Counted from the stretch's first letter, positions 4,324 through 49,985 are shown. The stretch is DNA of 64,000 bases from an uncultured cyanobacterium (GCA_963744145.1 CAVUSO010000001.1:2688001-2752000); one strand, 5' to 3'. The notes: a model not told the origin generated them from the letters alone. Translations and numbers: made by a program.

Positions 4324-4990
4324 CTAAGTAGAAAATTTCATAAGCTTCTGATAAATCTTTTTGTATTGTTGGTTGTCAATTAGAGCTATCCAACCTTGTC
4401 CCATCTTGATTTTTCCACTAGCTGTCATCCCTGTCACTTTAGTATTTCTGCCTTCAGTTCCACTGATATTACCCCAGTCATCAGTAACAAGATTGTCGGC
4501 ATAAAATATAGCTGTAATTTTAGGATAGTTGAAATCATGTTCACTCTTAATAAAGTCCCATACTAATCCCAGAAGTTTTTTGACCTCTCGATGATGAGCT
4601 TGTCCAGGTAATTCCCTCTAAACAATCAATTCTGGGTTGTCCTGCCCGTAAATTTGCACCTTGTCTGGTGTTACCAATAGTACATTTAACTTCCAAACCC
4701 ATAGGATAGTTGCGTAACAACTCCTCCGAAGGATGATCTGCTAATTTAGGAATAACATCGGGATGTCCCTTCTCAATTGGATTAACCATAGCTCCCGTTA
4801 CATCAGCAATCGAATGGCAGAATATTGCGCCAATAATTGAACTTGTAGTTTTATAGTCAACATTTTTATAAACATTTGAGGGAATCGTTTTTAAAAAGAG
4901 ATTTGTTGTACTCAATACAGATTCAATATGCTGACTGTTCACCTCAAATCCACAATCAATATTAAAATTAGGGTTAATGGTATAATTCAT
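4324..4990 (-). pseudogene. Type II restriction endonuclease (PD-(D/E)xK) with a +1 frameshift
   Basis: HPD...GLEVK motif. Removing one base at ~4603 continues ITW-QAHHREVKKLLGLVWDF...EGRNTKVTGM...MKFST* to 4324 (221 aa). Lies directly downstream of the C gene and converges on the MTase. Confidence 0.75.
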
Positions 4991-5213
4991 CTATGTTTTT
5001 TTCTACTTCAGCAATCAAGCTACTGGCTGTGGTGTTTAAAGATATTGATATTTTCAATAAAACGGACAAAGTAGGAGATTTCAAACCGCGCTCAATTTGG
5101 CTAACATAAGTGCGGTGAATCCCTGCGCGATCGGCAAGTTCTTCTTGAGATATTTTGGCGATGGTTCTATACTTAGCTAACACTCTACCTAGAGCTTGAT
5201 TAATGTTCGTCAT
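4974..5213 (-). CDS. R-M controller (C) protein, XRE-family HTH
   Basis: ISQEELADRAGIHRTYVSQIERGLKSPTL; ATG at 5213 gives 79 aa; overlaps the REase start. Confidence 0.85.
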   Translation of the reverse strand: MTNINQALGRVLAKYRTIAKISQEELADRAGIHRTYVSQIERGLKSPTLSVLLKISISLNTTASSLIAEVEKNIDELYH

Positions 5214-5237
5214 GTTTAAAAGTATCTCAATTAAAGA

Positions 5238-5263
5238 GACCATCAGTCTACAGACAATAGTAT
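5238..5263 (-). promoter_or_regulatory. C-box operator of the C-REase operon
   Basis: Minus strand ATACTATTGTC-TGTA-GACTGATGGTC resembles the GACT-N3-AGTC-TGTA-GACT-N3-AGTC architecture of C.PvuII-type operators; 25 bp upstream of the C gene ATG. Confidence 0.7.
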
Positions 5264-5483
5264 TCAATTTAGAGCTAAATTTGTTTTGAAAAAGTCGGTT
5301 ATATCCAACTAGCGATGCCAAAAAGCCTTATATTTAAGGTTAAATATAAACAAAAAAAATTTACTTGGGATTCAACTATAAGTGTGTGAGCAACAGATGC
5401 GATCGTGATTATCTGTCTAAATAACAGCTCAAAAACAGCGATCGCATTCTGTTTAAAAATTCAAACCTGACAACCCGAAAAAA

Positions 5484-6782
5484 TTAGAGACTTGACAGGA
5501 CATCACGAGCAGCTTGCAAAGTGCGCTCAATATCTTCATCAGTATGAGCGAGGGAAGTAAAACCAGCTTCAAACTGAGAAGGAGCCAAATAAATCCCACG
5601 TTCTAACATCCCACGATGAAAACGACTAAATTTAGTCAAATCTGACTTTTTCGCATCTTCATAGTTATGTACTGGTCCATCGGTAAAAAATAACCCAAAC
5701 ATGGCACTAATTTGACCACCACAAACTGCATGACCAGTTTCACGAGCAATTTGTAATAATCCATCTGCTAGTTTTTTGGTAATCCGATTTAATTGCTCAT
5801 AGCTACCTGGTTTATGTAATAACTCCAGAGTCTTAATTCCTGCTGTCATTGCTAAGGGATTACCAGAGAGTGTCCCAGCTTGATACATCGGACCAGCAGG
5901 AGCGACCATGGACATAATATCACGACGTCCACCATAAGCTCCCACAGGTAAACCACCACCGATTACTTTACCCAAAGTAGTTAAATCGGGAGTAATCCCA
6001 AATTTTTCTTGAGCACCACCATAAGCAATTCGGAAACCAGTCATGACCTCATCAAATACCAGCAACGCTCCGTTATCCTGAGTAATTTCTCGTAAACCTT
6101 CTAAAAATCCAGCATCAGGGGGAATAAAACCAGCATTACCAACCACAGGTTCTAAAATGACACCAGCAATTTCATTGGGGTTTTGAGCAAATAAAGCTTT
6201 GACAGCTTCTAAATCGTTATAGGGAGCATTGAGGGTATCACTGGTGACAGATTTGGGTACACCTGGAGAATCGGGTAAACCCAAGGTCGCTACACCAGAC
6301 CCAGCTTTGACCAGGAACATATCTGCGTGTCCGTGATAGCAACCTTCAAATTTAATGATTTTTTCCCGTCCCGTAAAAGCGCGGGTCAAACGCAAAACCG
6401 CCATACAAGCTTCTGTCCCGGAATTGACAAATCGGACCATTTCGATGCTCGGGACAGCACCAATTACCATTTCCGCGAGAACATTTTCCAACAATGAAGG
6501 AGCCCCGAAACTCGTACCTTTTTCGAGAGCTTCATGTAAAGCTTTGATCACATCTGGATGGGTGTGACCACAAATAGCAGGTCCCCAGGTCCCTACATAG
6601 TCAATATATTGATTACCATCCACATCCCAGATATAAGCTCCTTTCACCCTGTCAAATACAATCGGTTGACCACCTACCGATTTAAACGCTCTGACCGGAG
6701 AATTAACACCTCCGGGCATTAATTTTTGGGCAGCAGCAAAAATTTCTTCAGATTTTGTGGTTTTTAAGGTATTGGAACTCAA
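5484..6782 (-). CDS. hemL: Glutamate-1-semialdehyde 2,1-aminomutase
   Basis: [56 protein letters not shown]. Confidence 0.98.
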
Positions 6783-6851
6783 AGTATTCTCCCAAATATG
6801 TCAGCAAGTAAATTATCATGGTTATTTGTCCAATAATACCTAACTGAATGT

Positions 6852-7502
6852 ATGGTTGCTTCTGTAGTTCATCCCCTGTCCTTATCTGTCCCAGTTGAAC
6901 AAATTCGTTATAATGAGCAGGGACTCGTGCCAGCGATCGCCCAAGATTATCTTGATGGGACGGTATTAATGATGGCTTGGATGAATCGGGAAGCACTGGA
7001 AAAAACTCTCCAAACTCAAGAAACTTGGTATTGGAGTCGCTCCCGTCAGCGATTATGGCGCAAAGGAGAAACTTCTGGTCATATTCAAAAGGTGCGATCG
7101 ATCCGTTATGACTGTGACAGTGATGCTTTATTAATCACAATTGAGCAAGTAGGTGATATTGCTTGTCACACTGGGGAACGCAGTTGTTTTCATCAAGTGG
7201 AAGGTCAAATTGTACCTCCCCCAGCTGATATGCTGTCTCAGCTATTTGAGATCATTTGCGATCGCCGTGATCATCCCCAGGAATCTTCCTATACTTGTAA
7301 ATTATTGGCTGGTGGTGATAATAAAATTCTCAAAAAAATTGGGGAAGAATCAGCCGAAGTAGTCATGGCTTGTAAAGATCATGAGCCAGATGCGATCGCT
7401 GGCGAAGTCGCAGATTTATTTTATCATACTTTAGTGGCGTTAGCTTATCATCAAGTAGATTTGCGAGCTGTTTACCGTAAATTAGCAGAACGTCGTCGCT
7501 AA
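6852..7502 (+). CDS. hisIE: Bifunctional phosphoribosyl-AMP cyclohydrolase / phosphoribosyl-ATP pyrophosphatase
   Basis: [42 protein letters not shown]. Confidence 0.96.
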
Positions 7503-7551
7503 GAGCAATTGATGATTTAGTTGCCAAAAATAACTATTTTAATAGCTATTA

Positions 7552-8094
7552 CTAATTTACTTTGCTACTAATTGCAGTAGCGGTAAAATAGCGAACAGCT
7601 TTAATCTGAAGCAATGCAGAAAGACTAAACCAATATCTGATTCCGGCTGGGATATTAATATAGTCCTCAGCTTGGAGCAACAATTCCATCACCGACCCAT
7701 CTGGATGAGAAAAACCAAAGATACACTCTCCAGCTAACATATAAAGCGCTTCATCATTAGTATGAAATTGTGGGCGACTTCCTTGAGCTAGTAAATGATA
7801 AAGGTGAGATGACGAGGGGTTAACCACCATCAGTTCGCAGCAAGTGGAACTATTGGTATGTTTGGGAGTAGCGAACTTAGGACTAAGAGCTTGCAAAATT
7901 TGTTGCTTCTGAGCCAGATCAAGAATTTCGTAACTCAGCAGATTCTGTAACGACCGACTAATCTGTGGATTGACCAGATATTGTTGCAAGGGCAACTTTT
8001 CAATCCGAATATTTAATCTACTGAGCTGACGGTTGATTTCCCCCAGGTCAGTATAGGTATTTCCATCTTCGAGCCGCAAAACAGCCATATTCAA
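7552..8094 (-). CDS. Acireductone dioxygenase (ARD)-like cupin with degenerate metal ligands
   Basis: MAVLRLEDG start, HTNDEALY..GECIFGF, EDYINIPAGIRYWF, IKAVRYFT match cyanobacterial ARD-like cupins. Confidence 0.7.
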   Translation of the reverse strand: MNMAVLRLEDGNTYTDLGEINRQLSRLNIRIEKLPLQQYLVNPQISRSLQNLLSYEILDLAQKQQILQALSPKFATPKHTNSSTCCELMVVNPSSSHLYHLLAQGSRPQFHTNDEALYMLAGECIFGFSHPDGSVMELLLQAEDYINIPAGIRYWFSLSALLQIKAVRYFTATAISSKVN

Positions 8095-8251
8095 CCATCC
8101 TCATCAATAGCTAGAACTCATCAGCATGGGACATTGGGTAATCTACGGCAACTTGATGGAGAGACCGTAGATTCTTTTTGTGATCTTAGCACAGATCTGC
8201 TAATGTCAATGGATATAAATACCAATAGTCAATCGGAAAACCGTATTAATT

Positions 8252-8752
8252 TTGCCTAAAAACCTGATTTCCCTCAAACCATTCAAGGTGTATAACTTGC
8301 TGCCAGAATTATCTTCTCGGCTCGAATATGCCATTTTAGCTCTGCTAGAACTATCCGATCGTCAGCCCAATCCTTACCCCCTCAAAGCTTGGGAGATTGC
8401 AGCAGCCCAATCTATACCCTGTCGTTACCTTGATCAAATACTGATTGCGTTGCGACGTAGTGGATTAGTCCAGGGTCAAAGAGGGGTGAAAGGGGGTTAT
8501 TTGTTAGCAAAAAACCCTCAGCAGATTACCCTATTAGAGATTATGGAAGCAGTGGAGGGGAAGTCAAATGAGGATGAATCCGATGAGGGGGAGTCCAATC
8601 ACCCTCAGTTAGAAGTAGATCGGACTCCCACCGTAGAAAGAAAAGTTATTATTGCTGCTTGGAAACAAGCATCCCAAGCATTCCAGATGGCTTTAAGCAA
8701 TTATACCTTGGAGGATTTGCGGATACAGCGAAATACTGATCAACCAACTTAG
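8252..8752 (+). CDS. Rrf2-family transcriptional regulator (CymR-like, lacks the Fe-S cysteine triad)
   Basis: LSSRLEYAILALLEL, YLDQILIALRRSGLV, RGVKGGYLLA, ITLLEIMEAVEG; start codon uncertain. Confidence 0.9.
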   Translation: MPKNLISLKPFKVYNLLPELSSRLEYAILALLELSDRQPNPYPLKAWEIAAAQSIPCRYLDQILIALRRSGLVQGQRGVKGGYLLAKNPQQITLLEIMEAVEGKSNEDESDEGESNHPQLEVDRTPTVERKVIIAAWKQASQAFQMALSNYTLEDLRIQRNTDQPT

Positions 8753-8754
8753 TT

Positions 8755-8959
8755 TCATGACAATTTCTGTCCACATTGCTGATTAGCTGGTAGTGCTTCG
8801 GCAATTTTTTTTGGTAAGAACAACTTATAAATTTAAACCTAACTCTTGCAACAATTGCCGATCCCGCTCCACCTCTTTCACTACGGGGTCTACCAAAATC
8901 GCATCTCTGGTTTGTCGATCGGCTAACAGGTAGGTGGATGTACAGGTTTCTCGATCAAA
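8755..8959 (-). pseudogene. Remnant of persulfide dioxygenase (ETHE1/PDO, MBL fold) with the catalytic core deleted
   Basis: Manual translation gives FDRETCTSTYLLADRQTRDAILVDPVVKEVERDRQLLQELGLNL* (8959-8825, PDO N-terminus), then in another frame LPKKIAEALPANQQCGQKLS* (8817-8755, PDO C-terminus). Confidence 0.75.
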
Positions 8960-9038
8960 CGACTTGCTCCTTGTTAGAGTCGGATATTTCCATTCCTATT
9001 ATTTAGATATAAGCAGACAATTAATCAAAAATTTCCCT

Positions 9039-9210
9039 GTAAATTAACGGCTAGTAACCGTTAATTTACCTCTTCAAGTTCATCAAAATAACGAGGATCA
9101 ATGAATTAAAATTAACGGCTAGCAACCGTTAATTTAATCAATTTGATGCTCCGAATTAATCGGATTAATCCGAATCTATGAACCTGAATTTAACGGATTA
9201 GAACCGTTAA
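9039..9210. promoter_or_regulatory. Three TTAACGG-N7-CCGTTAA palindromes (candidate operators)
   Basis: GTAAATTAACGG-ctagtaa-CCGTTAATTTAC 9039-9069; AAATTAACGG-ctagcaa-CCGTTAATTT 9109-9135; TTAACGG-attagaa-CCGTTAA 9190-9210. Confidence 0.7.
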
Positions 9211-9585
9211 TTAATAGTCATTAAATCTCCGAAAATTAAATCAGAATATGTGAGTTTTAATGTTTAACTTTTGTAAAAAATAATAGTAATTGAGAGAAGA
9301 AATAGAAAGATTCATGCTATGGTTAAATCTGTCAAAAATAACCGATTAGCATTCAGCCATTTATGGCTTGGCTAAATGTAAAGTTAATGGCTAAATCAAG
9401 ACGTAATTTCTATCTGACCAATGCTTTTCAGTAAGATTGATTAGCTTCCTTGGTCAAATAAAAAGGTGAGTTATTTTCAATAAAAATAATCTCAACTGAC
9501 AGGATTGCAGTTAAATATATGCCTGAAATCCTAGTAATGAAGTCAAGATTTTAGCAGTTTGGAAAGATTGTTGGAAGGAGATCTT

Positions 9586-11091
9586 ATGGTTACAAGAGTT
9601 ACAACTCAAGAAAGTCGTCAATTGCAAAGCAGTCAAGCACCAGATGCTAATGCTGCTAATGCTGCTGAATATCGTCCATTGCAAAGTGTAACCACAGAAG
9701 CGGCTCGTCAGTTAGCGGTTACGAATAATACAGTTCCCCAAATGGTGGGAATTACTCCTCGATGGTTACTACATTTCTTACCCTGGGTGCAAGTAACATC
9801 AGGAACTTATCGCGTCAATCGCACCAAGGTTGTACTAAAACACAATCCCAAGATTTCTGTCAATAACAACAATGGCTTCTCAACAGTGGCACCAGAAGAT
9901 TTACGAGTGATCTCGATGCTCTCCCCGTTAGCAGCTAATGAAGCTTTACCAATTGCTAACGCTTTCCAACCTGAGCATTTTGCCATTGGAGCAACTCCAA
10001 TCACAGTAGGACAAACTAGTGATAAGTTCTACATTGTGATTCAGGGTAAATTGGAAGTTTTAGTACGAGGCGCTCATGGGGAAAACTTACGTCGTACCGT
10101 ACTGGGTGCAGGGGACTACTTCGGTGAAGAAAATCTCTATCAAGATACACCTAGTGATGCCACAGTTCGCGCCCTGACCGATGTTGATGTGCTCACGATT
10201 TCGAGAGCTAGTTTTGAGCAGATTACCAATCAGTTCCCAGGACTGCGCGATCGCCTGCGACAATCAAGGGAAGAGCGAGGACAAATGAAGCAATTCCTCA
10301 ACAAACATGGGGAAGAAAAAATTGCTTTGATCAGTGATTACGAAGGAGAAAATGAAGTCCCAGCGTCATATATTGACTATGAAGGCGATCCGCAAGAATA
10401 CGAATTAAGTCTTGTCCAAAGTATTCTGCGCGTACATACCCGTGTCAGCGATCTTTACAATGAACCCATTGATCAATTGCGCGAACAGTTGCGATTGACA
10501 GTAGAAGGGATGAAAGAGCAGCAAGAATGGGAAATCATCAACAACCCAGACTTTGGCTTGCTGAACAACGTTTCACCGTTAATGCGGCTGCAACCTCGCT
10601 ACGGTCCTCCTACCCCCGATGATTTGGATGATATGTTAGCTCGGGTGTGGAAAAAACCCGCTTTCTTCCTCGCTCATCCTCAAGCGATCGCCGCTTTCGG
10701 ACGTGAATGCACCCGTCGCGGTGTACCTCCAGTAGCATTGAATTTGTTTGGTTCTCCCTTCATCACCTGGCGTGGTGTGCCCCTAGTCCCCTGCGATAAG
10801 CTAGAAATCCGGGGTGGCAATAGTAGCATCCACGGACCAGGTAAGACCAGTATTCTACTGATGCGAGTAGGGGAAAGCGACCAAGGTGTAGTTGGATTAC
10901 ATAAGATCGGTATTGCTGGCGAACAACTGCCTGGTCTATCTGTCCGCTTTATGGGACTTACCAATGACGCGATCGCTTCATACTTGATGACCCTGTATTT
11001 CTCCTGTGCAGTGCTAACGGATGATGCTTTAGCTGTCCTCGAAGATGTTGAAGTTGGATATTACCATGACTATGTCTATTCAGGGTCTTGA
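9586..11091 (+). CDS. Family 2B encapsulin shell protein (SrpI-like HK97 fold with inserted cNMP-binding domain)
   Basis: AARQLA..TVPQMVGITPRWLLHFLPWV..GTYRVNR, YELSLVQSILRVHTRVSDLYNEP, GPPTPDDLDDML, WRGVPLVPCDK; internal FYIVIQGKLEV..GDYFGE..ATVRAL domain; GGAG RBS before ATG 9586. Confidence 0.92.
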   Translation: MVTRVTTQESRQLQSSQAPDANAANAAEYRPLQSVTTEAARQLAVTNNTVPQMVGITPRWLLHFLPWVQVTSGTYRVNRTKVVLKHNPKISVNNNNGFSTVAPEDLRVISMLSPLAANEALPIANAFQPEHFAIGATPITVGQTSDKFYIVIQGKLEVLVRGAHGENLRRTVLGAGDYFGEENLYQDTPSDATVRALTDVDVLTISRASFEQITNQFPGLRDRLRQSREERGQMKQFLNKHGEEKIALISDYEGENEVPASYIDYEGDPQEYELSLVQSILRVHTRVSDLYNEPIDQLREQLRLTVEGMKEQQEWEIINNPDFGLLNNVSPLMRLQPRYGPPTPDDLDDMLARVWKKPAFFLAHPQAIAAFGRECTRRGVPPVALNLFGSPFITWRGVPLVPCDKLEIRGGNSSIHGPGKTSILLMRVGESDQGVVGLHKIGIAGEQLPGLSVRFMGLTNDAIASYLMTLYFSCAVLTDDALAVLEDVEVGYYHDYVYSGS

Positions 11092-13138
11092 AGGTGAAAA
11101 CGGTAGGCAAGCACCTCAAGTCAATCCCTTACCAACATCGGCTTGGGGCAGTGACGCTTATGATCCGCACAGCATTGAAACCTTAGCCAATCAGCTTTAT
11201 AGCGCGGTTCCGGGCTCGCATAGTGGGGCAAACCAAGTTCACCAGGCTAAATCAGTTGGTGAAACCACAACGACCATGCCCCATGAGACATCGACTCAAG
11301 CTCCAGCGGTAACCATCCCATCCAGTCCAGCTGTTCCCGCAGCACCTGCCACTCCAGCAACAGGAACTGAAATTCCCGCTGGGCAGGGAGTCACTGGCAT
11401 AACTCCCACCTCCGCCGATCCACTAGGCCAAATTATCCAGCAGTTGCACGCCCAGATGTATGTGGGCAACTTGGATAGTGCCATGAAACAGGCGATCGCT
11501 GGACTGAGTACCCCGACTCAACCAGCGATCGGTGGACTAAGTACCCCCAACCAATCGGCGATCGGTGGACTAAGTACCCCCAGCCAACCAGCGATCGGTG
11601 GACTAAGTGCCCCGACTCAACCAGCGATGAGTGGACTGAGTACCCCTAGTCAACCGGCGATCGGTGGACTAAGTACCCCCAACCAGGAAGCTGTTGCTCA
11701 ACCAAAAGTGGCAACTGTGCCCAGTAGCACTTTCAGTCAGGAAGCTTTAAATGGGATTGCACAACAGATGCTGCAATCGGTGCCACAGCTTTTCGGCGAC
11801 CCAACTCAGAAGTCTGCTGTGACAACACCTGGTCTGACCGAAGCTCCAGGGACAACAGCCGATCAATCGAATTTCTACTTCATCTCAACTCCACAGGTAG
11901 AAAAACAGGGGTTGAAGTCGGATACTCCGTTTGATGTCCATATCGTTCGCCAAGATTTTCCGATCTTGCATCAGAAAGTAAATGGGAAACCATTGATCTG
12001 GCTAGACAATGCGGCTACCACCCAAAAGCCCCAAAGTGTGATTGATAGTATTTCCCGTTTCTACGAACGAGACAACTCTAACATTCACCGTGCCGCCCAC
12101 ACCCTAGCTGCCAGAGCAACGGATGCTTATGAAGCAGCCAGAGAAACGGTACAACGGTTTTTGGGAGCGAGTTCAAAGACTGAGATTATCTTTGCTCGGG
12201 GTACTACCGAAGCGATCAACTTGGTCGCCAAAACTTACGGACGTCAGCAAATCCGCAAGGATGATGAAATCATTCTCTCAACCCTGGAACACCATGCTAA
12301 TATCGTGCCCTGGCAAATGTTAGCCCAGGAAACTGGCGCGATTTTAAAGGTAATTCCAGTTAATCAGTCTGGCGAAGTTATTCTGGAAGAATACGCGAGA
12401 CTGTTAGGTCCTCGGACTCGGATCGTTGCTGTCACTCATGTGTCTAACGCTCTGGGTACGATCTTGCCAGTCCAAGAAATCACACATATGGCGCACAGAC
12501 ATGGCGCGATCGTGCTGATCGATGGAGCGCAAGGGATTCCTCACTTATCGGTCAATGTCCAAGCTTTAGACTGTGACTTCTATACCTTTTCTGGTCACAA
12601 ATTGTTTGGACCGACAGGGATTGGTGTCCTGTATGGGAAACAGGAACTCCTGGAAACTATGCCCCCTTGGCAGGGTGGGGGCAGTATGATCCGTCATGTG
12701 ACGTTTGAACATACCGTTTATGAAGATCCACCAGCAAAATTTGAAGCGGGAACACCTAATATTGCTGATGCGGTCGGACTAGGTGCAGCGATTGACTATA
12801 TTACCCGTTTGGGAATGGTTAATCTAGAACGTTATGAGCAACAACTGACGGAATATGCCACAGAGCGTCTGCTCGAAATTCCCGGATTGCGTTTGATTGG
12901 GACGGCTGCCCATAAAGTTGGTGTGCTATCCTTTGTGTTTGACGATATTCCTCCGGAAACTGTAGGTAAACGTTTAGACCAGGAAGGGATCGCAGTACGC
13001 GCTGGTCATCATTGTGCCCAGCCCACGATGCAGCGGTATAATGTGATCGGGACGGTTCGGCCTTCTCTGGCTTTCTATAATACTTATGAGGAAATCGACA
13101 CCCTCGTAGAAGTTCTGCGAAATCTGCGCTATCGTTAG
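11072..13138 (+). CDS. SufS-class cysteine desulfurase with long disordered N-terminal encapsulin-loading region
   Basis: LDNAATTQKP, EHHANIVPWQ, PLP lysine SGHK, catalytic RAGHHCAQP; ~280 aa P/T/S/Q-rich leader; overlaps the shell gene end. Confidence 0.93.
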   Translation: MSIQGLEGENGRQAPQVNPLPTSAWGSDAYDPHSIETLANQLYSAVPGSHSGANQVHQAKSVGETTTTMPHETSTQAPAVTIPSSPAVPAAPATPATGTEIPAGQGVTGITPTSADPLGQIIQQLHAQMYVGNLDSAMKQAIAGLSTPTQPAIGGLSTPNQSAIGGLSTPSQPAIGGLSAPTQPAMSGLSTPSQPAIGGLSTPNQEAVAQPKVATVPSSTFSQEALNGIAQQMLQSVPQLFGDPTQKSAVTTPGLTEAPGTTADQSNFYFISTPQVEKQGLKSDTPFDVHIVRQDFPILHQKVNGKPLIWLDNAATTQKPQSVIDSISRFYERDNSNIHRAAHTLAARATDAYEAARETVQRFLGASSKTEIIFARGTTEAINLVAKTYGRQQIRKDDEIILSTLEHHANIVPWQMLAQETGAILKVIPVNQSGEVILEEYARLLGPRTRIVAVTHVSNALGTILPVQEITHMAHRHGAIVLIDGAQGIPHLSVNVQALDCDFYTFSGHKLFGPTGIGVLYGKQELLETMPPWQGGGSMIRHVTFEHTVYEDPPAKFEAGTPNIADAVGLGAAIDYITRLGMVNLERYEQQLTEYATERLLEIPGLRLIGTAAHKVGVLSFVFDDIPPETVGKRLDQEGIAVRAGHHCAQPTMQRYNVIGTVRPSLAFYNTYEEIDTLVEVLRNLRYR
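11492..11689 (+). repeat. Six 33-nt coding tandem repeats (AIGGLSTPxQP)
   Basis: Units gcgatcggtggactaagtaccccNNNNcaacca, starting with HIP1 or a HIP1 variant. Confidence 0.9.
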
Positions 13139-13150
13139 CTCCACCATGCA

Positions 13151-13192
13151 GACCTAACCCCCCAACCCCCTTCCCTATAAGGGAAGGGGGAG
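13151..13192. repeat. Cyanobacterial dispersed REP-like repeat
   Basis: gacctaaccccccaacccccttccctataagggaaggggg; near-identical copy at 30713-30753; hairpin ccccttccct/agggaagggg. Confidence 0.8.
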
Positions 13193-13218
13193 TTTTTGAG
13201 GTAATTACAGAAAAGATT

Positions 13219-13647
13219 ATGATCGAGTTTAACTGGATCACCGCTTTACTCGGTGGGCTGCTGATTGGCACAAGTGCAACTATAATGCTCGCTTTTAATG
13301 GTCGCATCACTGGAATTTCTGGCCTACTTAATACTGCCATTACTTTTGCCCCTGGTGAAGGTTGGCGCTGGTTATTTCTGATCGGGCTATTATTGGGGGG
13401 AGCTTTCTATGAATATGTGATTGCATCCCAACCAACCCCAACTTCGGAATTTGCTCCTTGGACCATGATCGCAGGAGGTTTTCTCGTCGGGTTTGGCACC
13501 AGGATGGGTAAGGGTTGTACCAGTGGTCATGGAGTGTGTGGTTTGGGACGCTTGTCCGGACGATCGCTGGTTGCTGTCTTAACTTTTCTTACCACTGGGA
13601 TGGTCACGGTTTTGATTGTTCGTCACCTGCTGTCCTGGTCGATTTGA
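13219..13647 (+). CDS. YeeE/YedE-family sulfur-compound transporter subunit
   Basis: GGLLIG..NGRITGISG, GFLVGFGTRMGKGCTSGHGVCG. Confidence 0.92.
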   Translation: MIEFNWITALLGGLLIGTSATIMLAFNGRITGISGLLNTAITFAPGEGWRWLFLIGLLLGGAFYEYVIASQPTPTSEFAPWTMIAGGFLVGFGTRMGKGCTSGHGVCGLGRLSGRSLVAVLTFLTTGMVTVLIVRHLLSWSI

Positions 13648-13659
13648 GGTATAGGACAA

Positions 13660-14067
13660 GTGAAACAAAATTTAATTACTCTGATTGCTGGGATATTGTT
13701 TGGTTTGGGTCTAGGTCTGTCCCAGATGATCGATCAGCAACGGGTCCTCGGCTTTCTCGATGTTACTGGTCATTGGGACCCGACGTTACTGTTTGTGCTA
13801 GGTGGGGCAGTAAGTGTGACAGTAATTGCATTTCAGTTGATTTTGCGCTTACCCCACCCACTCTGGGATGAGAAGTTCCATTTACCCACCCAAACCAATA
13901 TCGATCGCCCTCTAGTTATCGGAGCTGTGATCTTTGGGATCGGCTGGGGGATTGCTGGTTACTGTCCTGGACCAGGTATTACAGCGCTAGTGCTGGGGAT
14001 CTGGAATCCTGTATTGTTTTTAGTCGCAATGATTGTTGGCTCACTGACTTATAAGAGGTTTAGTTAA
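13660..14067 (+). CDS. YeeE/YedE-family sulfur-compound transporter, partner subunit
   Basis: GILFGLGLGLSQM, VLGFLDVTGHWDPTL, FGIGWGIAGYCPGP. Confidence 0.92.
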   Translation: MKQNLITLIAGILFGLGLGLSQMIDQQRVLGFLDVTGHWDPTLLFVLGGAVSVTVIAFQLILRLPHPLWDEKFHLPTQTNIDRPLVIGAVIFGIGWGIAGYCPGPGITALVLGIWNPVLFLVAMIVGSLTYKRFS

Positions 14068-14332
14068 TGATAATCTCTTTGAAATAATTAGGTGGTAATG
14101 CCAATGTTGTTTCATCAGGTATATAGCTAATCTGCTCTGCTTCACAAGTAATATGCCATTTGTCACCGACATCTTCGATATAATCTTTGGATGTATGACT
14201 AGGGCAGTGTATAGTAATATGGTTGCAGAAGTTTTCTAGACCACTCACGATCACACGCCATTCTTTGCTTTGGGGATCGGTGGGAGAATATTTGGTGTTG
14301 AAACGGATTTTTACTAGCGTTTTTTTAGACAT
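14060..14332 (-). CDS. Hypothetical protein
   Basis: 90-aa ORF with ATG and an upstream AGGA; family not recognised. Confidence 0.55.
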   Translation of the reverse strand: MSKKTLVKIRFNTKYSPTDPQSKEWRVIVSGLENFCNHITIHCPSHTSKDYIEDVGDKWHITCEAEQISYIPDETTLALPPNYFKEIIIN

Positions 14333-14441
14333 AGTTGATTCCTAGTAAATATACTTTTATAGTATAGTCTAAATTTAGTAAAGTAGATGATTTTTAACAG
14401 TAAATTTTGGTTTAATCGCTAGATATTGATTATTCAGAATT

Positions 14442-14484
14442 TCCCGTGCGATCGGCAAAGTTAACTATTACCGATCGCACGGGA
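14442..14484. terminator. Inverted repeat, possible terminator
   Basis: TCCCGTGCGATCGG ... CCGATCGCACGGGA, 14-bp stem downstream of the 14529-14888 gene. Confidence 0.5.
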
Positions 14485-14528
14485 GATAATGGGATGTTAT
14501 TCTAGATGTTTCAAACCTATATACAGAT

Positions 14529-14888
14529 TTATGACTGATGGTGAAATTTTTCTCCATAATATGCTGCTTCAACTGTAATTTGACCGATAATATGCAGGTT
14601 GAATTCTGGGAGTTGTTCAGCTGGCACCCATAGTTCTTGATGAATGCTACTTCCAACTGTTTGAATTTCAAACTGATTGATATAGTCATCATCTACCTCA
14701 AATTTAGTCACAAATCCAGCAAAACCATTGCTCTGAGTATTCCATTTTTCAGCAATTTGGGCAGCATATTCAAAATTGAGAACTGGGTAGAAAATAGGTT
14801 GTTCAGGAAGTCGGGGAGGAAAAGACCGGAAGTTTGTTTGAGCAATTAATTCAAGTTCCTTAACTCCCACAGGACGATAAAGTAACAT
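14529..14888 (-). CDS. Conserved hypothetical protein (often annotated ADP-ribosylation/crystallin J1-related)
   Basis: LYRPVG..ELELI..FPPRLPEQPIFYPVLN..YA.QIA..WN, H.ELWVPAE.L..FN..I.G.I motifs. Confidence 0.7.
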   Translation of the reverse strand: MLLYRPVGVKELELIAQTNFRSFPPRLPEQPIFYPVLNFEYAAQIAEKWNTQSNGFAGFVTKFEVDDDYINQFEIQTVGSSIHQELWVPAEQLPEFNLHIIGQITVEAAYYGEKFHHQS

Positions 14889-16514: not shown

Positions 16515-16862
16515 ATGACCATATCCCAACCTCCCATTGACCAAGATCCTGATCATTACCATCATCGAGATCCTCATTCTCACCATGCTCATGTTCACAG
16601 TGAGGATTCCCTCCGACGAATTATCAATCGATTATCACGGATTGAGGGTCATGTGCGCGGGATTAAAACCATGATCCAAGCAAGTACCCCTTGTCCAGAT
16701 GTTTTAGTCCAAATTGCCGCAGTGCGTGGAGCTTTGGATCGGGTAGCAAGAATTATTCTAGATGAACATTTAACTGAATGTATTGCCCGTGCTGCCAAAG
16801 AAGGTAACATTCAAGCAGAAATTGAAGAACTAAAAGCGGCTTTAGATCGATTTTTGCCTTAA
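16515..16862 (+). CDS. inrS: CsoR/RcnR-family metal-sensing repressor (InrS-like)
   Basis: His-rich N-terminus, RLSRIEGHVRGI, CPDVLVQIAAVRGAL, EHLTEC. Confidence 0.85.
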   Translation: MTISQPPIDQDPDHYHHRDPHSHHAHVHSEDSLRRIINRLSRIEGHVRGIKTMIQASTPCPDVLVQIAAVRGALDRVARIILDEHLTECIARAAKEGNIQAEIEELKAALDRFLP

Positions 16863-19930: not shown

Positions 19931-21418
19931 ATGGCAGCGACTAGAAAAGATATTTTATTATTACAGGCGACTAAAGATGGCAATATTAACCAAGTAGAAG
20001 CGCTGCTAGCGATGGAAGCAGATGTTAATGTTACCGATCGCGATGGCACCACCCCTTTAATGTTCGCTGCTCAGTTTGGTTATACCGAAATTGTCAAAGT
20101 TTTGGTCAAAGCTGGAGCAAAGATTGAGCAGTCCAGAACTCAGTTTGGGATTACAGCCTTAATGATTGCTGCCGCAGCTAATCAGATTGACACAGTAAGG
20201 TTTTTAGTGTATAGCGGCGCTAATGTCAATGCTATTAATGAAGATGGTAGCACAGCTTTAATGATTGCAGCTTTACAAGGTCATTTGCAGATTGTGCAAA
20301 TCTTGGTGGGTGCTGGGGCTCAAGTGAATTTAAAAGATTTAGTTGAAGATAATGCTTTAAATTTGGCTGCTCAAAAAGGTCATACAGAAGTAGTCCAAGT
20401 TTTATTAGCTGCTGGTGCCCAGATAAATTTAACAAGAGAATGCGATCGGGTTTCTGCTTTATTTTTAGCGATCGCTGTGGGTCAAGTTCAAACTGTCCAA
20501 GTTTTATTACAGTGGGGTGCTGATCCTCATGTCGTTAGAAAAAATGGCAAAACTTGTCTAATGCAAGCGGCAGAAATTGGTAATTTAGGAATTACGCAGT
20601 CGTTACTCGCGAAAAGTGTTGATGTTAATGCTCAAGATCAAGAAGGGGATACAGCTTTAATTTTGGCAGCAGAGGTCGGTCATCTTGACATTGTCAAATT
20701 ATTAATAATTGCTGGAGCTGATCTGAATATTAAAAATCAAGATGGGTGGTCAGCTTTGAGTGTTGCTGCTGCTGGGGGTTATAGGGAGATTACTAAAGTT
20801 TTAATTGGTGCTGGAGCCGATATTAATACTAAAAATCAAGAAGGTGAAACAGCTTTAAATCTAGCTGTAATCGAAGGATATAATCAGGTAGTAGATTTAC
20901 TGTTAGAACGAGGAGCAGATGTAAAAACTACCAATAACCTAGGTGATACAGCTTTGATTATAGCAGCTTGGCATGGTCAAAGTAAAATCGTTGTTTCTTT
21001 ATTAAATAAAGGTGCTGAAGTTAATCAAAAAAATCTCGGAGAAAGTCCTTTAACTATAGCTGCTACTCATGGACATAGCGAAACAGTTCGTTTTTTGTTA
21101 GAATATGGTGCTGATCCCAATATCAGGGATGAACAACAAAAAACCGCCTTGATCAAAGCTGCCGATCGCGGTCATACTCAGGTGATTCAACAATTATTAG
21201 CTAAAGGTGCTGATCCTAATCTTCAAGATCAGAACCAAACAACCGCTTTGATGTGGGCAGCTCAAAGAGGGAATGGGGAAGCAGTACGTTTATTGTTAAA
21301 TGCTGGTGCGGATGTGAATAAAAAAAATTGGGGTGGATATTCAGCTTTGATGTTAGCAGAAGCTAATGGACATAAAAATCTGGTGCGATCGCTCAAAGTT
21401 GCTGGTGCTGAAGAATAA
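19931..21418 (+). CDS. Ankyrin repeat protein
   Basis: About 14 G-T-AL--AA--GH-EIV--LL--GAD-N repeats. Confidence 0.95.
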   Translation: MAATRKDILLLQATKDGNINQVEALLAMEADVNVTDRDGTTPLMFAAQFGYTEIVKVLVKAGAKIEQSRTQFGITALMIAAAANQIDTVRFLVYSGANVNAINEDGSTALMIAALQGHLQIVQILVGAGAQVNLKDLVEDNALNLAAQKGHTEVVQVLLAAGAQINLTRECDRVSALFLAIAVGQVQTVQVLLQWGADPHVVRKNGKTCLMQAAEIGNLGITQSLLAKSVDVNAQDQEGDTALILAAEVGHLDIVKLLIIAGADLNIKNQDGWSALSVAAAGGYREITKVLIGAGADINTKNQEGETALNLAVIEGYNQVVDLLLERGADVKTTNNLGDTALIIAAWHGQSKIVVSLLNKGAEVNQKNLGESPLTIAATHGHSETVRFLLEYGADPNIRDEQQKTALIKAADRGHTQVIQQLLAKGADPNLQDQNQTTALMWAAQRGNGEAVRLLLNAGADVNKKNWGGYSALMLAEANGHKNLVRSLKVAGAEE

Positions 21419-21466: not shown

Positions 21467-21524
21467 AAAAAAAATCCCCAAGTGGTTAAACTTGGGGACA
21501 TTTAATATCAGGGTGCATCTATCC
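21467..21524 (-). ncRNA. NsiR1-like small RNA, copy 1
   Basis: Minus strand GGATAGATGCACCCTGATATTAAAT-TCCCCAAG/CTTGGGGA hairpin followed by T-run; TCCCGA about 30 bp upstream. Confidence 0.65.
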
Positions 21525-21582
21525 TATTTATTCTTAGTGTTAGTTTCATCATCGGGATAAATTTCCCCAAAACTTCAAAAAA

Positions 21583-21638
21583 TAAAAAACCTCCAAACCG
21601 TTAAGCTTGGAGGTGTTAATATCAGGGTGCATCTACAC
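21583..21638 (-). ncRNA. NsiR1-like small RNA, copy 2
   Basis: Minus strand GTGTAGATGCACCCTGATATTAAC-ACCTCCAA/TTGGAGGT hairpin followed by T-run; perfect TCCGGA (DIF1-like) at 21668-21673. Confidence 0.7.
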
Positions 21639-26785: not shown

Positions 26786-27881
26786 ATGTTTGATCAGAAT
26801 ATCATCAATGAGGCATTACAGACTTCTCGCTCAGTGATCGTCAGTACAATTGAGAAAACAATTACTAACAAGAGAGCAATGGGCAGGAGCCTATACATCT
26901 TTATATGACTTATTGATTGATTATCCTTTGCGGGTGGGCAAAATGCTACGTCCGACCATCTGTATTAGTGTAGCACGAGCGAGCGGTGGACTGGGTCATT
27001 TAGCAGTAAAAACTGCTGCGGCACTTGAACTATATCATAATGCGTTTTTAATTCACGATGACATTGAAGATGGTTCAGAATCGCGACGAGGTAAAGATAC
27101 GTTACACCAGAAGATTGGAATTCCCCGTGCGATTAATGTCGGAGATGCGACTAATGTATTAGCAGTGGGGTTATTATTAGAAAATTTATCAGTAATTGGG
27201 GTATCAAAGACCCTAAATGTTCTCCATGAAATTGAGTTCATGGCCCAGCAATCGGTCGAAGGACAAGCAATGGAACTGGATTGGGTCACAAATAATATTG
27301 CCAAAATTACAGATCAAGATTATTTTAATATGTGTGTAAAAAAGACCTGTTGGTATTCCTTTATTACCCCTTGTCGTCTGGGGTTAATTATTGGCTATCC
27401 CACAGATAATCCCACCGAATTAGTTAAACCTTTAGCCAATTTAACTAGGTTTGGAATGATTCTTGGAATTGCTTTTCAGATCCAAGATGATTTATTAAAT
27501 CTGCAAGGAGAAATGAAACCCTATGGTAAAGAAATTGGGGGAGATATATATGAAGGAAAACGCACATTGATGCTGAATCATGTTATTGCTAACAGTGGTA
27601 AAGCCGCTGAGGAAATTCTTGATATTCTTGCCCAACCAAGAGAGAAGAAGACCCCTAATCAAATTGCTTTTATTTTAGAAAAAATGCAAGAATGTGGTAG
27701 TATTGAACATAGTTGGAATGTCGCCCGAAATCTAGCTATTGAAGCAAAAACTATCTTTGATACCTTAGATTTTTTGCATCTAGAAACCCCCTTAAAACCA
27801 GAAGAAGAAGGGGTTTGTGCTAGGCAAGATCGAAGATTTCTCAAAGAATTAATTAATTATGTGATTTATCGAAATTTATGA
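26786..27881 (+). CDS. Polyprenyl diphosphate synthase family protein (5' end apparently frameshifted)
   Basis: GKMLRP, FARM LIHDDIEDGSESRRG, GQAMEL, KKTCWYS, FQIQDDLLN, EGKRT; ATG 26786 is out of frame with the main ORF (26850-27881). Confidence 0.88.
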
Positions 27882-29392
27882 GCCAATTACCACAGATCGA
27901 TCTGAAAGTTTCCCCAGGTATAACAGTGAGCTTGGAACTATTACTCCGTAACCAAGGTACAGAAACACTAGTGTTACACCCAAAATTAGAGAATTGGGTA
28001 ATTGATGGAGAACAAATTATTACACCTGTTAGTTCTGTTGATCCGGTTTGCATTTTATTATCAGAAAAAGCCGAACAAACTCAAATCATGAAACTGAGCA
28101 TACCCTCTGATTTACAACCAGGACAGATTCTGACAAATTGGCTCAGATTTCCTGGAACTCAGGAAGAAGGTATTTTTATGCGAATTGAAATTAGTAAATT
28201 AGACCAACAGCAACCATCTATAATTAATTTAGTTTTGCCAATTAATTTACCTTTTTTCTCCCCTAACCATCAACGAGATGGAATTTCAGGATTGATCTTA
28301 GGATTGATGGAACTTGACTATATCCCTACCCGGTGGATGGTAGCAGAAATTTTAGTTAAATTATGTCAATTTGGTGAGGAATATAGTCAATCTCAATCTG
28401 GAAGAGATTTAATTCAACAATTAAGTAAAACATCTTTTTTTCAAATTGGGGTTATTGCTTTAGAACAGACCCAATTGGTTAACTGGATTACTAATACTTT
28501 AAGAAATATTAAATTAAGTATTCCCATTAATAATAGTCAACAATCTCTGCTGGATGCTTGGACATTTTGGTGGTTCAGTTTAAATGAATTAGATTTAGAA
28601 ATAGACGCAGAGAGCCACCTAATTGCTCCCTCTCTTCTTTTAGCTGAAAATTTTATTAATCACATCGGAAAAAGGGGAGAAAAGTGGTTTGCTAATTTGC
28701 TTTTGGGATTAGTTCAATTATCACCAACAATTGCTCTAAATTTAAAAAAAATTGCCACCCAACCCCCAAAAGATTCACAAATATTAACAGAGTTATCTAC
28801 CCAATCTAGTTATAATTTAGCCACGGGATTATCAGGATTTGATTTACTTCCTGTCCGTTGGTTAGTGCTAGAAATTTTACTTTTACTTAATGATGTGGGC
28901 AGAGAATATATGACCACGGAAACGGGTGAAAAATTATTAAATCAGTTGAGTGGTACTCGTTTATTTAAAAATTTAGTAATTGCTTTTATCTCAGCTCAAC
29001 TACCACGTTGGATAGCAATTAGTCAAGGTGCTGCAAATGCTTATTACGAGTCTCTCGGTATTGCTCATCAGCATCGTGGGATATTATATTACTGGGAAAA
29101 TTGGTTATGGAGTTTAACTGGGATAGAATTAAACTCAGCCGGAATTAAGCATATCACTTCTAGTAAAAATATCTTTACTGTGCTGAAACAAGAGCAAATC
29201 AATGTCGAAGAGTTGGTTGGTTCAATGATCATGGGACTGGTAAAAATTTCACCCCGAATTGCTGCCCAAGTCCAACAGATAGCCGCAAAATCTCCCCATT
29301 TATCGCGATCGATTAATCAAATACCAATCAAAGTAAATCATCCCATTGATGATATTATTAATCAATCCGGTAATGGGGGTTTAACTAGGTAG
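27878..29392 (+). CDS. Hypothetical protein with internal duplication
   Basis: Two copies of GL.GLD.(I/L)P.RW.V.EIL..L...G.EY.....G..L..QLS.T..F; ATGA overlap with the polyprenyl synthase stop. Confidence 0.75.
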   Translation: MSQLPQIDLKVSPGITVSLELLLRNQGTETLVLHPKLENWVIDGEQIITPVSSVDPVCILLSEKAEQTQIMKLSIPSDLQPGQILTNWLRFPGTQEEGIFMRIEISKLDQQQPSIINLVLPINLPFFSPNHQRDGISGLILGLMELDYIPTRWMVAEILVKLCQFGEEYSQSQSGRDLIQQLSKTSFFQIGVIALEQTQLVNWITNTLRNIKLSIPINNSQQSLLDAWTFWWFSLNELDLEIDAESHLIAPSLLLAENFINHIGKRGEKWFANLLLGLVQLSPTIALNLKKIATQPPKDSQILTELSTQSSYNLATGLSGFDLLPVRWLVLEILLLLNDVGREYMTTETGEKLLNQLSGTRLFKNLVIAFISAQLPRWIAISQGAANAYYESLGIAHQHRGILYYWENWLWSLTGIELNSAGIKHITSSKNIFTVLKQEQINVEELVGSMIMGLVKISPRIAAQVQQIAAKSPHLSRSINQIPIKVNHPIDDIINQSGNGGLTR

Positions 29393-29484
29393 TCAGGAAG
29401 AGAAATTAAATCACTCTATATTTATTTTTCATTCCTAAACCAATTAAATGAGCGAGTGATTAAAGCGATAAAATTTCGATATTT

Positions 29485-46300: not shown

Positions 46301-46727
46301 ATTAGAAGGACATACTGATCGGGTCTATGGAGTAAGTTTTAGCCCCGATGGTCAAATAATTGCTTCTGCTAGTTTTGACAAAACCATAAGATTATGGAGT
46401 CTTGATGGGGCGCTCTTGAGAACTCTAGAAGGACATAAGCATCGGGTCTATGGAGTAAGTTTTAGCCCCGATGGTCAAATAATTGCATCAAGTAGTGCTG
46501 ACAAAACCATAAGATTATGGAGCAGCAATTCTCATTTTGAAAAAAATCAGAGAAAATTCTCTTATTTAAATAGAGAACTTGTGTCGAAGCATGATTTTTT
46601 GACAGATAATTATCATCCGACGCTGAAGATAGACAAGTTTTCAGAAATTTGTCCATGAAAAATCGATTTCAACTGATACATCCAGATGAAATTCTCACCC
46701 ATTTTTTAGGTTTTTTTTGATAAAAAA

Positions 46728-49864: not shown

Positions 49865-49985
49865 ATAGCTTTGGGTTTGAGAAACATCTACTGTGCGGCG
49901 ATCGCTCGTCAAATTCTGAACACTAATTGTTACTATTTGGTGAAAAGCATGGTAACTCAAGCAACCCAGATTCGCTGTTATCACT

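Follow-up and report, generated by a model that had tools for sequence, protein, structure and literature searches.

A Family 2B encapsulin shell with a predicted cysteine desulfurase cargo and sulfur-related neighbouring genes in a cyanobacterial chromosome

Family 2 encapsulins are divided into Families 2A and 2B according to whether an internal cyclic nucleotide monophosphate (cNMP)-binding domain is absent from or present in the shell protein (Andreas & Giessen 2021, PMC8346489). Operons with a cysteine desulfurase as cargo were counted 1281 times for Family 2A and 199 times for Family 2B in that survey, the latter in 9 phyla. Its main text names serine acetyltransferase and rhodanese as accessory genes of desulfurase operons, and its supplementary table lists Planktothrix tepida PCC 9214 under Cyanobacteria, Family 2B and Cysteine Desulfurase. 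For 2A desulfurase systems, leader-dependent loading, contacts near the three-fold axis and a higher activity of the encapsulated enzyme have been described (Nichols et al. 2021, PMC8049743; Benisch et al. 2024, PMC10836720), and crystalline elemental sulfur is stored in these shells (PMC10836720). The first 2B shell was solved by Andreas et al. (2024, PMC11550324), who put the share of 2B systems carrying a desulfurase at ~9% and considered that the pore state may differ in these. Here we analyse a locus of this kind at positions 7552-14067 of a stretch of 64,000 nucleotides from an uncultured cyanobacterium (GCA_963744145.1 CAVUSO010000001.1:2688001-2752000), the whole of which is referred to as the window. 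The original prediction, made from the sequence alone, had read this locus as a 2B encapsulin loaded with a cysteine desulfurase. Its premise, that desulfurase shells characterised so far are of Family 2A and that terpene enzymes are carried by the characterised 2B shells, agrees with the published descriptions of these systems (PMC8049743, PMC10836720, PMC11550324, PMC13739066).

Our analysis suggests that the locus probably encodes a one-component 2B desulfurase compartment which stores sulfur and works like the 2A systems. The features that carry this reading are the following.

9586..11091, plus strand: Family 2B encapsulin shell, 501 amino acids (aa), the sole shell gene in the window (PF19307 and PF00027, NF041163, solved 2B shells)
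9829..10317, plus strand: inserted cNMP-binding-fold domain with linker, shell residues 82-244 (mapped against SrpI), with the cassette at 10120-10167
11066..13138, plus strand: predicted cargo cysteine desulfurase of the SufS type with an N-terminal leader of ~290 aa (PF00266, NF041166, 8kg1)
11492..11681, plus strand: 33-bp tandem repeat in 5.8 copies, encoding AIGGLSTPxQP units in the leader linker (Tandem Repeats Finder, 84% matches)

The longest open reading frame (ORF) of the shell spans 9559-11091. The ATG at 9586, located seven bases past a GGAGA, is the likely start and gives the N-terminus MVTRVTT, which is common to the closest relatives. In Pfam searches the product matched the SrpI-like family PF19307 (3.5e-113) and cNMP_binding PF00027 (2e-17). 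The search with family-specific profiles that had been proposed for the shell resulted in 580 bits for the NCBIfam model NF041163 (encap_f2b, 'family 2B encapsulin nanocompartment shell protein'), at a cut-off of 400. The solved 2B shells 9bje, 9bix and 9bhu aligned end to end with the window shell (2.7e-118 to 9.5e-109), whereas the 2A shells 6x8m and 8t6r aligned only to residues ~259-508, i.e. the last ~250. Alignment to SrpI of Synechococcus elongatus was confined to residues 39-81 (58% identity) and 245-499 (60% identity over 255 aa), and the segment between them falls between SrpI residues 56 and 60. Because only these flanking parts align to SrpI, residues 82-244 were assigned to the inserted domain and its linker. 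The family-invariant residues are retained. SrpI F262 and Y273, reported to be adjacent to cargo density (Nichols et al. 2021), correspond to F455 and Y466 of the window shell, both of which are kept; Y466 is invariant in 36 out of 36 aligned shells, and F455 is replaced by Leu in the planctomycete rows. The closest relatives of the window shell are 72-81% identical to it, and the shell cluster of P. tepida (P0024) is 68% identical. Going by these similarities, the shell gene is a true member of Family 2B, and its product would be expected to self-assemble into an icosahedral compartment.

The shell gene overlaps a gene whose 697-aa longest ORF matched PF00266 on residues 318-687 (3.3e-150), the sufS model TIGR01979 (579 bits, cut-off 475) and the solved desulfurase 8kg1 (7e-169). 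It contains the motifs SGHK at 516 and HHCAQP at 655, which we take to hold the pyridoxal phosphate (PLP) lysine and the catalytic Cys, respectively. The NCBIfam model NF041166, 'encapsulin cargo protein cysteine desulfurase', scored 806 bits at a cut-off of 800 and spans residues 29-687, thus including the leader. By its longest ORF the gene overlaps the shell stop (11091) by 47 nt, and by 26 nt if it starts at ATG 11066 (MTMSIQG). The latter start is backed by an alignment with 25 relatives, and the same 26-nt overlap was found in Oscillatoria sp. PCC 10802 (locus L001). Hence, the overlap of the shell with a SufS-class desulfurase carrying a long leader stands as first described. The match to NF041166 over leader and catalytic domain places the downstream gene in the family of encapsulin-cargo cysteine desulfurases, and its product is most likely the enclosed cargo of the shell.

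The leader of ~290 aa is rich in A, T, P, S, Q and G, and its disorder is judged from composition alone. Four islands were found in the leaders of 26 cyanobacterial cargo proteins: FDPxxVExLANQLYxAxP, ALTxIAKQLxAQM, the weaker EAL...QIP, and QPSFYFLSxP. The first and the last resemble the 2A cargo motifs LARLANEFFS and AASPYYFLDG (Nichols et al. 2021; Benisch et al. 2024). LANQLY and FYF[IL] are the conserved cores of these islands in the 26 relatives. Crude regular expressions for the two motifs matched only 12 and 17 out of 67 cargo leaders, so that the motifs, written in this way, do not hold for all phyla. A homologue search with the leader alone (residues 1-290) returned only the query itself, and the full-length protein was needed to retrieve relatives. 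The tandem repeat is situated between islands two and three and represents an insertion unique to the window among 26 aligned desulfurases.

For comparison, an alignment of 36 relatives was used to scan one genome per species, which provided 73 loci. These derive from the best 80 of 605 confirmed matches and are therefore not a random sample. They belong to Planctomycetota, Chlorobiaceae, Bacteroidota, Actinomycetota and other groups, and one cyanobacterial locus, that of Oscillatoria, was among the best 80. A desulfurase catalytic domain, 53-81% identical to that of the window, was located 0.2-1.3 kb downstream of the shell gene on the same strand in 67 out of 73 loci; in the remaining 6 the contig ends 2-1153 nt past the shell gene. 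All 67 contain an open in-frame extension of 49-413 codons before the catalytic domain. The pair of shell and desulfurase is conserved across phyla, and its frequency indicates a widespread conserved operon. In the protein database, 15 shell hits and 15 desulfurase hits moreover agree in the length of their longest contig, a purely heuristic sign of pairing. Two shell paralogues occur in at least 10 loci, compared to one shell gene in the window. Among the flanking genes of the 73 loci were PALP/CysK (32), a ThiS-DsrE fusion (20), Cys/Met PLP enzymes (16), ThiF (16), serine acetyltransferase (15) and JAB peptidase (11).

Two further observations concern these loci. Many of the non-cyanobacterial 2B loci (L004-L070) combine the ThiS-DsrE fusion, ThiF, the JAB peptidase and a CysK/CysM-like enzyme, a set reminiscent of protein-thiocarboxylate-dependent cysteine synthesis. 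In the Oscillatoria locus a major-vault-protein homologue is encoded directly upstream of the shell gene (4708-7374; Vault repeats 7.3e-69, major-vault-protein shoulder 4.7e-55), which places two unrelated compartment-forming proteins next to each other.

The inserted domain on its own matched the cNMP domains of PKA RI-alpha at 1.1e-24 and those of the Streptomyces 2B shells at only 8.8e-09. A fold other than that of cNMP domains, which would have spoken against the original prediction, was thus not found. In a gap-free alignment of its phosphate-binding cassette FGEENLYQDTPSDATV with FGELALIYGTPRAATV of PKA RI-alpha, the Arg position is occupied by Ser and the following Ala by Asp, whereas the Gly-Glu of the ribose contact is retained in comparison to PKA RI-alpha domains A and B. 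The domain therefore lacks the invariant Arg of the canonical cassette, as had been noticed at the outset. It has the fold of the cNMP family but not the ligand site of this family. Since Ser-Asp replaces the phosphate-binding Arg-Ala, the domain most likely binds neither cyclic AMP (cAMP) nor cyclic GMP (cGMP). It might either take another small ligand or be purely structural. By the example of those terpene-type 2B shells that have been solved, the inserted domains would sit on the outside, over the two-fold pores.

Loss of this Arg in 'essentially all' 2B shells, by replacement with Trp, has been reported and held responsible for the failure of the outer domains to bind cAMP (Andreas et al. 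2024, PMC11550324). A geosmin shell was again described as not binding cAMP, and its ligand was stated as not known (2026, PMC13739066). The suggestion that the ligand of the window shell may not be a cyclic nucleotide is hence reasonable, but both the loss of the Arg and the lack of cAMP binding in Family 2B had already been published. To this our tally of 200 related shells (80 shell genes taken from the loci, 119 proteins from the database and the window shell itself) adds a different residue. The Arg position is taken by Ser in 161 shells, 108 of which have Ser-Asp, by Arg in 28 and by other residues in 11; Trp was not found at this position in any of the 200. As Ser and Arg occur without Trp in this set, the desulfurase-type 2B shells differ from the terpene-type shells at the cassette site. 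The 28 shells with Arg carry the textbook cassette FGEIALIxxxPRTATV and comprise those of loci L002, L003, L040, L051 and L070 as well as proteins among P0040-P0107. In a quick tree the Ser and Arg states were clustered, and the Arg state amounted to five changes, two of which are forced by well-supported branches. This minority may be genuine cyclic-nucleotide binders. The prevalence of Ser, often followed by Asp, instead of Trp in desulfurase-type 2B shells, next to 28 canonical cassettes in 200, is new in this study.

The ORF map of the locus comprises a cupin, an Rrf2 regulator, the shell, the desulfurase and two transporter halves, in agreement with the coordinates first given. Besides the shell and its predicted cargo, the following features were mapped.

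7552..8094, minus strand: cupin resembling acireductone dioxygenase (ARD), 180 aa, divergent partner of the Rrf2 gene (PF03079, 2.7e-11, residues 85-173)
8252..8752, plus strand: Rrf2-family regulator (PF02082, 2.9e-30)
8825..8995, minus strand: persulfide dioxygenase remnant, N-terminal ~50 codons, in a 56-codon open stretch
9044..9210, no strand: palindrome TTAACGG-N7-CCGTTAA in three copies at 9044, 9112 and 9190, candidate operators (repeat family D1)
13166..13190, plus strand: terminator-like hairpin with an 11-bp stem including 8 G-C pairs, followed by a T run (consensus scan)
13219..13647, plus strand: half-size YeeE/YedE protein, 142 aa, matching the C-terminal half (PF04143, 29.7 bits, cut-off 27, profile positions 194-309 of 310)
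13660..14067, plus strand: half-size YeeE/YedE protein of the PmpB/YedE type, 135 aa, matching the N-terminal half (DUF6691, PF20398, 1.1e-42)

Downstream of the desulfurase, a YeeE/YedE pair had been predicted, and the matches to PF04143 and DUF6691 agree with this. The first transporter half contains Cys100 and Cys107 within GKGCTSGHGVCG. The second reached only 22.4 bits with PF04143 (profile positions 13-104), which is below the cut-off, and has a lone Cys102 in GYCPGPG and four hydrophobic stretches; overall, 3-4 such stretches were counted in each half. Sequence searches of the two halves against solved structures gave best E-values of 0.44 and 0.23, both to unrelated proteins. The literature describes PmpA and PmpB as proteins of ~130 residues with four helices and one conserved Cys each, one gene corresponding to each half of YeeE, and YedE1E2 as an importer of zero-valent sulfur usually accompanied by a persulfide dioxygenase and ArsR-type regulators. 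The window likewise has two adjacent genes, one per half, each with a conserved Cys, the equivalence of which is based on position only. More tentatively, the pair could move zero-valent sulfur or thiosulfate into the same sulfur economy as the compartment.

Recurrence of this transporter pair in Oscillatoria sp. PCC 10802 is a new observation of this study. There the shell and desulfurase genes are followed by a serine acetyltransferase gene (cysE, 4.2e-75) and then by two transporter genes, of which 12442-12855 is 78% identical to the first half and 12928-13332 is 79% identical to the second. These values are close to those of the shell and cargo (71-81%). In a spirochaete metagenome-assembled genome a Sulf_transp ORF immediately follows the desulfurase gene, and no further relative of the transporter was detectable among 470 neighbouring ORFs of the other loci. 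The supplementary table of the survey contains a 2B row for Acetobacter orientalis with a desulfurase followed by two Sulf_transp genes, and several Methylobacterium 2B and proteobacterial 2A rows with one Sulf_transp nearby (PMC8346489). Our literature search found no paper linking encapsulins with YeeE, and no relevant encapsulin paper for YedE, TsuA, DUF6691, PF04143 or sulfur transporter among the matches listed. The hairpin between the desulfurase and the transporter genes was folded in a 91-nt segment with a minimum free energy of -26.9 kcal/mol (z -2.44); 2 out of 200 shuffled sequences folded as well. Because the pair is present in few loci and separated from the desulfurase by this hairpin, its functional coupling to the compartment is proposed here only with reserve.

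Upstream of the shell the original prediction had named an Rrf2 gene, an ARD-like cupin and a persulfide dioxygenase remnant, and all three were recovered. The cupin scored 44 bits with PF03079 (cut-off 27); its best solved relative is the acireductone dioxygenase 4qgl (2.5e-10), and its nearest Atlas cluster is named 'acireductone dioxygenase' and mostly cyanobacterial. The metal site of ARD enzymes is made up of His-His-Glu-His, and in the alignment to 4qgl the cupin has Gln in place of the first of these His residues and Tyr in place of the last. The cupin may thus not be a working dioxygenase. The remnant matched residues 8-56 of 238 of human ETHE1 (4chl, 3.5e-11) and also the bacterial persulfide dioxygenases 5ve4 and 4ysb, and no continuation of it was detected in any frame.

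For the Rrf2 protein only the superfamily model TIGR00738 was passed. Scores were 61 versus a cut-off of 195 for CymR, 59 versus 208 for IscR and 23 versus 182 for NsrR, and far below the cut-off for RirA. It has a single Cys, at position 57, and hence no iron-sulfur ligand set. These scores speak against an identity as CymR, IscR or NsrR, as does, for IscR and NsrR, the single Cys in place of three iron-sulfur ligands. On the plasmid pANL of S. elongatus (L074), a divergent pair of an Rrf2 gene and ANL43 is located at 4638-5719, ~4 kb upstream of the srpI locus. The cupin of the window is 31% identical to ANL43 over 87 aa (9e-15), and the two Rrf2 proteins share 36% identity over 140 aa (4e-23). 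The Rrf2 similarity alone is unremarkable; by sequence comparison it is the shared cupin partner and the arrangement that make the pair noteworthy. This recurrence of the Rrf2/cupin pair beside srpI on pANL is reported here for the first time, and we found no paper tying Rrf2 to srpI or pANL.

The 0.8 kb between the Rrf2 and shell genes are free of long ORFs, and an Rfam scan of this gap detected neither a riboswitch nor any other RNA family. The gap contains the three palindromes, which are 68 and 78 bp apart and lie 376-542 bp upstream of the shell start. Within the 64 kb window the palindrome matches 3 times, a number that none of 100 shuffled sequences reached. It was not found in the Oscillatoria locus or in the pANL stretch, and for this reason it cannot be called a conserved operator. 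Promoter-like sites were not enriched in 7400-14600 (14 observed, 13.1 expected from shuffled sequences).

The six genes differ in composition from their surroundings. The GC content at third codon positions (GC3) is 0.38-0.46 in all six, from the cupin (0.38) to the second transporter half, and mostly 0.19-0.33 in the other 47 ORFs of the window, of which only 4 reach at least 0.38. The bulk GC content is 48-52% at 10-14 kb compared to 35-43% in the surroundings. Based on these deviations the ~6.5 kb block, with its foreign-looking composition, has the look of an acquired island in the chromosome of a heterocyst-forming-type (Nostocales-type) cyanobacterium. It is bordered by hisIE, which ends at 7502, on one side and by an AT-rich stretch beyond 14067 on the other. 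Direct repeats flanking the island were not found in 7350-14650, and thus no mechanism of insertion can be named. Cyanobacterial marks in the window are two copies of the small RNA NsiR1, phycobilisome genes and abundant HIP1 words. The nitrogen-stress small RNA NsiR1 was detected as a tandem pair on the minus strand (21467-21524 and 21582-21637; 48.6 and 45.7 bits, gathering score 39), which we take as a pointer to heterocyst-forming lineages. By its own database record, the shell protein is encoded on a contig of 7.63 Mb. No tRNA genes were found in the window by a tRNA scan. A deficit of HIP1 (GCGATCGC), with 4 copies in the 6.5 kb island and 74 in 64 kb, was also considered as a sign of foreign origin and dropped, the difference being too small by our own estimate.

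In the sulfur-storing compartment that we favour, the desulfurase would be tethered inside the shell via the short conserved motifs of its disordered N-terminal domain, by analogy with the 2A systems of S. elongatus and Acinetobacter baumannii. It would convert cysteine to alanine, and the released sulfane sulfur would be held in the shell as a protected zero-valent pool. The Rrf2 protein might regulate the locus, and a persulfide dioxygenase could once have been part of the transporter module and have decayed since; both of these steps are proposed with less confidence. All functional statements beyond gene identity are drawn from related systems.

Several observations weigh against this proposal. 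Large open two-fold pores like those of the terpene 2B shells would fit poorly with the retention of sulfur. The inserted domain of Family 2B has been described to begin with a conserved calcium-binding subdomain (Andreas et al. 2024), and in the corresponding segment of the window shell the acidic residues of 9bhu and 9bje are mostly replaced by Asn, His or Ser, as judged for the segment as a whole. Serine acetyltransferase, rhodanese and cysteine synthase, the usual accessories of desulfurase encapsulin operons, are not encoded in the island, nor are the CysK, ThiS-DsrE, ThiF and JAB genes known from other 2B loci. Given these missing accessory genes and the dead dioxygenase nearby, the island could be a trimmed and partly decaying copy. 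Of the 54 loci whose downstream sequence extends for 1.5 kb or more, only 2 contain genes detectably similar to the transporter pair (the Oscillatoria locus and an open-ended ORF in L033), and the hairpin together with a promoter-like site separates the desulfurase from the transporter genes. Finally, no characterised 2B desulfurase system, whether by expression, assembly or activity, was found in our literature search.

The strongest alternative concerns the neighbours rather than the compartment. Only the pair of shell and desulfurase would be functional as a unit, whereas the transporter, the Rrf2/cupin genes and the dioxygenase stub would be neighbours by transfer history or chance and form an independent module for sulfane-sulfur detoxification. 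The hairpin and the promoter-like site would suit such a division. YedE1E2 normally travels with a persulfide dioxygenase and ArsR-type regulators and not with encapsulins, the palindromes are not shared with Oscillatoria or pANL, and in 72 of the 73 loci no Rrf2, cupin or YedE relative was found within 4 kb of the shell. On the other hand, the transporter pair follows the desulfurase in Oscillatoria at an identity similar to that of shell and cargo, the same gene order appears in the published Acetobacter row, pANL has such an Rrf2/cupin pair near srpI as well, and the GC3 of all six genes deviates in the same way. Taking both sides together, we give this alternative somewhat less than an even chance. 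The same evidence divides the original claim of a dedicated sulfur locus: recurrence in Oscillatoria, in the Acetobacter row and near srpI speaks for it, whereas the rarity of these neighbours among the fetched loci and the intervening hairpin speak against it. Similarly, the neighbourhood survey that had been called for bore out the pairing of shell and desulfurase (67/73), but not the association with the transporter, Rrf2 and cupin genes, which do not recur in the other 72 loci.

A real compartment may also serve the mobilisation of sulfur instead of its storage. Under sulfur starvation it would degrade cysteine at a raised rate and pass the persulfide sulfur to external acceptors, as was first proposed for SrpI. 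Location of the other 2B loci among cysteine-biosynthesis genes (PALP/CysK, ThiS-DsrE, ThiF and serine acetyltransferase in the numbers given above) is in line with such a role. In contrast, the sole system examined for its products, the 2A shell of A. baumannii, was reported to accumulate elemental sulfur inside, and a rhodanese or another acceptor gene is not present in the island. This function is possible although on balance unlikely, and the two readings are not mutually exclusive.

A more far-reaching version of the storage reading is that the desulfurase 2B systems are ligand-gated stores with diversified sensing, in which Arg cassettes would respond to cAMP or cGMP and Ser-Asp cassettes to a different metabolite that reflects the sulfur status, e.g. 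an amino-bearing one like cysteine or O-acetylserine, and that the stores of some cyanobacteria are fed with zero-valent sulfur by a dedicated YedE1E2 importer under an Rrf2 regulator shared with srpI. As a whole we consider this improbable.

It was further considered whether the island is the decaying remnant of a horizontal acquisition that is no longer expressed or functional. The foreign composition and the truncated dioxygenase would be compatible with decay, as would the loss of the serine acetyltransferase gene relative to Oscillatoria and the lineage-specific expansion of the tandem repeat in the cargo leader. However, all six ORFs are intact, the catalytic and family-invariant residues are retained along with the conserved 26-nt overlap and a ribosome-binding site, and the repeat keeps the reading frame and is placed in a linker whose length differs between the relatives. 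Decay of the whole island is therefore very doubtful. The older view of such proteins as soluble Crp/Fnr-like regulators, still reflected in the depositor names 'Crp/Fnr family transcriptional regulator' and 'CRP-like cAMP-binding protein' of relatives, can practically be dismissed, as the protein has no DNA-binding domain, its C-terminal 257 residues are 60% identical to the capsid fold of SrpI, entries so labelled are solved 2B shells, and the function of EshA has been revised to that of a shell protein (Andreas et al. 2024, PMC11550324).

The proposed sulfur-storing 2B compartment is ordinary as a kind of system, because its operon class is already present in surveys and in the naming models of NCBI. 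In this respect the original prediction overrated its novelty: 199 such operons had been surveyed, P. tepida is listed among them and NCBIfam names both proteins. Its remark that it knew of no characterised example in this context is consistent with our literature search. Follow-up appears worthwhile on the split between Ser-Asp and Arg cassettes, on the recurrence of the YedE1E2-type transporter and on the Rrf2/cupin pair in common with the srpI locus. The field openly acknowledges the native ligands of 2B outer domains as a gap (PMC11550324, PMC13739066). As the Arg and Ser-Asp variants occur within one clade, ligand binding and pore gating can be compared between close relatives, and a cyanobacterial system with a single shell and a compact set of genes would offer a convenient test case for 2B desulfurase encapsulins. 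If the shells with Arg cassettes do bind cyclic nucleotides, they would tie sulfur storage to cAMP or cGMP signalling. The recurring neighbours, i.e. the YedE1E2-type importer and the Rrf2/cupin pair, hint at the sulfur source and at the control of the locus.

Elsewhere in the window a gene for a CsoR/RcnR-family repressor was found 2.4 kb downstream of the island (16515-16862, plus strand; PF02583, 4.5e-27); this family includes persulfide sensors. A 495-aa protein encoded at 19931-21418 (plus strand) consists almost entirely of ankyrin repeats (PF12796, 2.2e-133). At 26850-30609 (plus strand) two long ORFs of 504 and 374 aa without a Pfam match come after a gene for polyprenyl synthetase (PF00348, 3.2e-53), possibly as a terpenoid cluster unconnected to the encapsulin. 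A defence-like or signalling cluster at 43845-53293 comprises an nSTAND1 NTPase-WD40 fusion (937 aa), a second WD40 protein, a PIN-domain gene and an AAA_21 ATPase beside a DUF4435 protein.

Among the known systems, the characterised pairs YedE1E2 of Cupriavidus pinatubonensis and PmpAB of Serratia resemble the transporter genes of the window in consisting of two adjacent genes for ~135-142 aa with a Cys near position 100, a likeness judged by their published descriptions. The persulfide dioxygenase that usually accompanies YedE1E2 is present only as a remnant in the window, and no link of these pairs to encapsulins was found in the papers searched. The terpene-type 2B shells, i.e. Sg Enc/EshA of Streptomyces griseus (9bhu, 9bix, 9bje) and the geosmin shell of Myxococcus, have the same domain order as the window shell and likewise lack the Arg. 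They differ in their terpene cyclase cargo and in the Trp at the Arg position, where the window has a desulfurase cargo and Ser, respectively. The 2A shell of A. baumannii (8t6r) matches residues 261-506 of the window shell (3.2e-108), and its cargo is described with a disordered loading domain of ~225 residues containing short conserved motifs, similar to the cargo of the window. Unlike the window, this system is described as a 2A shell with closed two-fold pores in a four-gene operon with rhodanese and acetyltransferase.

Closest in gene content are the catalogued 2B operons, in which, as in the window, a cNMP-domain shell is followed by a desulfurase with a disordered N-terminus. They are represented by survey entries only, and the accessory genes named for them in the main text of the survey are not YeeE/YedE or Rrf2. 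The SrpI/CyD system of S. elongatus PCC 7942 on pANL (6x8m/6x8t) lacks the inserted domain, so that the window shell has residues 82-244 in addition. The pANL locus consists of cysK, an acetyltransferase gene, srpI, cyd and a rhodanese gene, none of these three accessory genes being present in the window, and no YedE pair was found in the 18.7 kb of pANL that were examined. Nevertheless, both systems share the HK97 part of the shell with F262 and Y273, a cargo of the same family with similar leader motifs, and a nearby divergent Rrf2/cupin pair that is homologous between the two.

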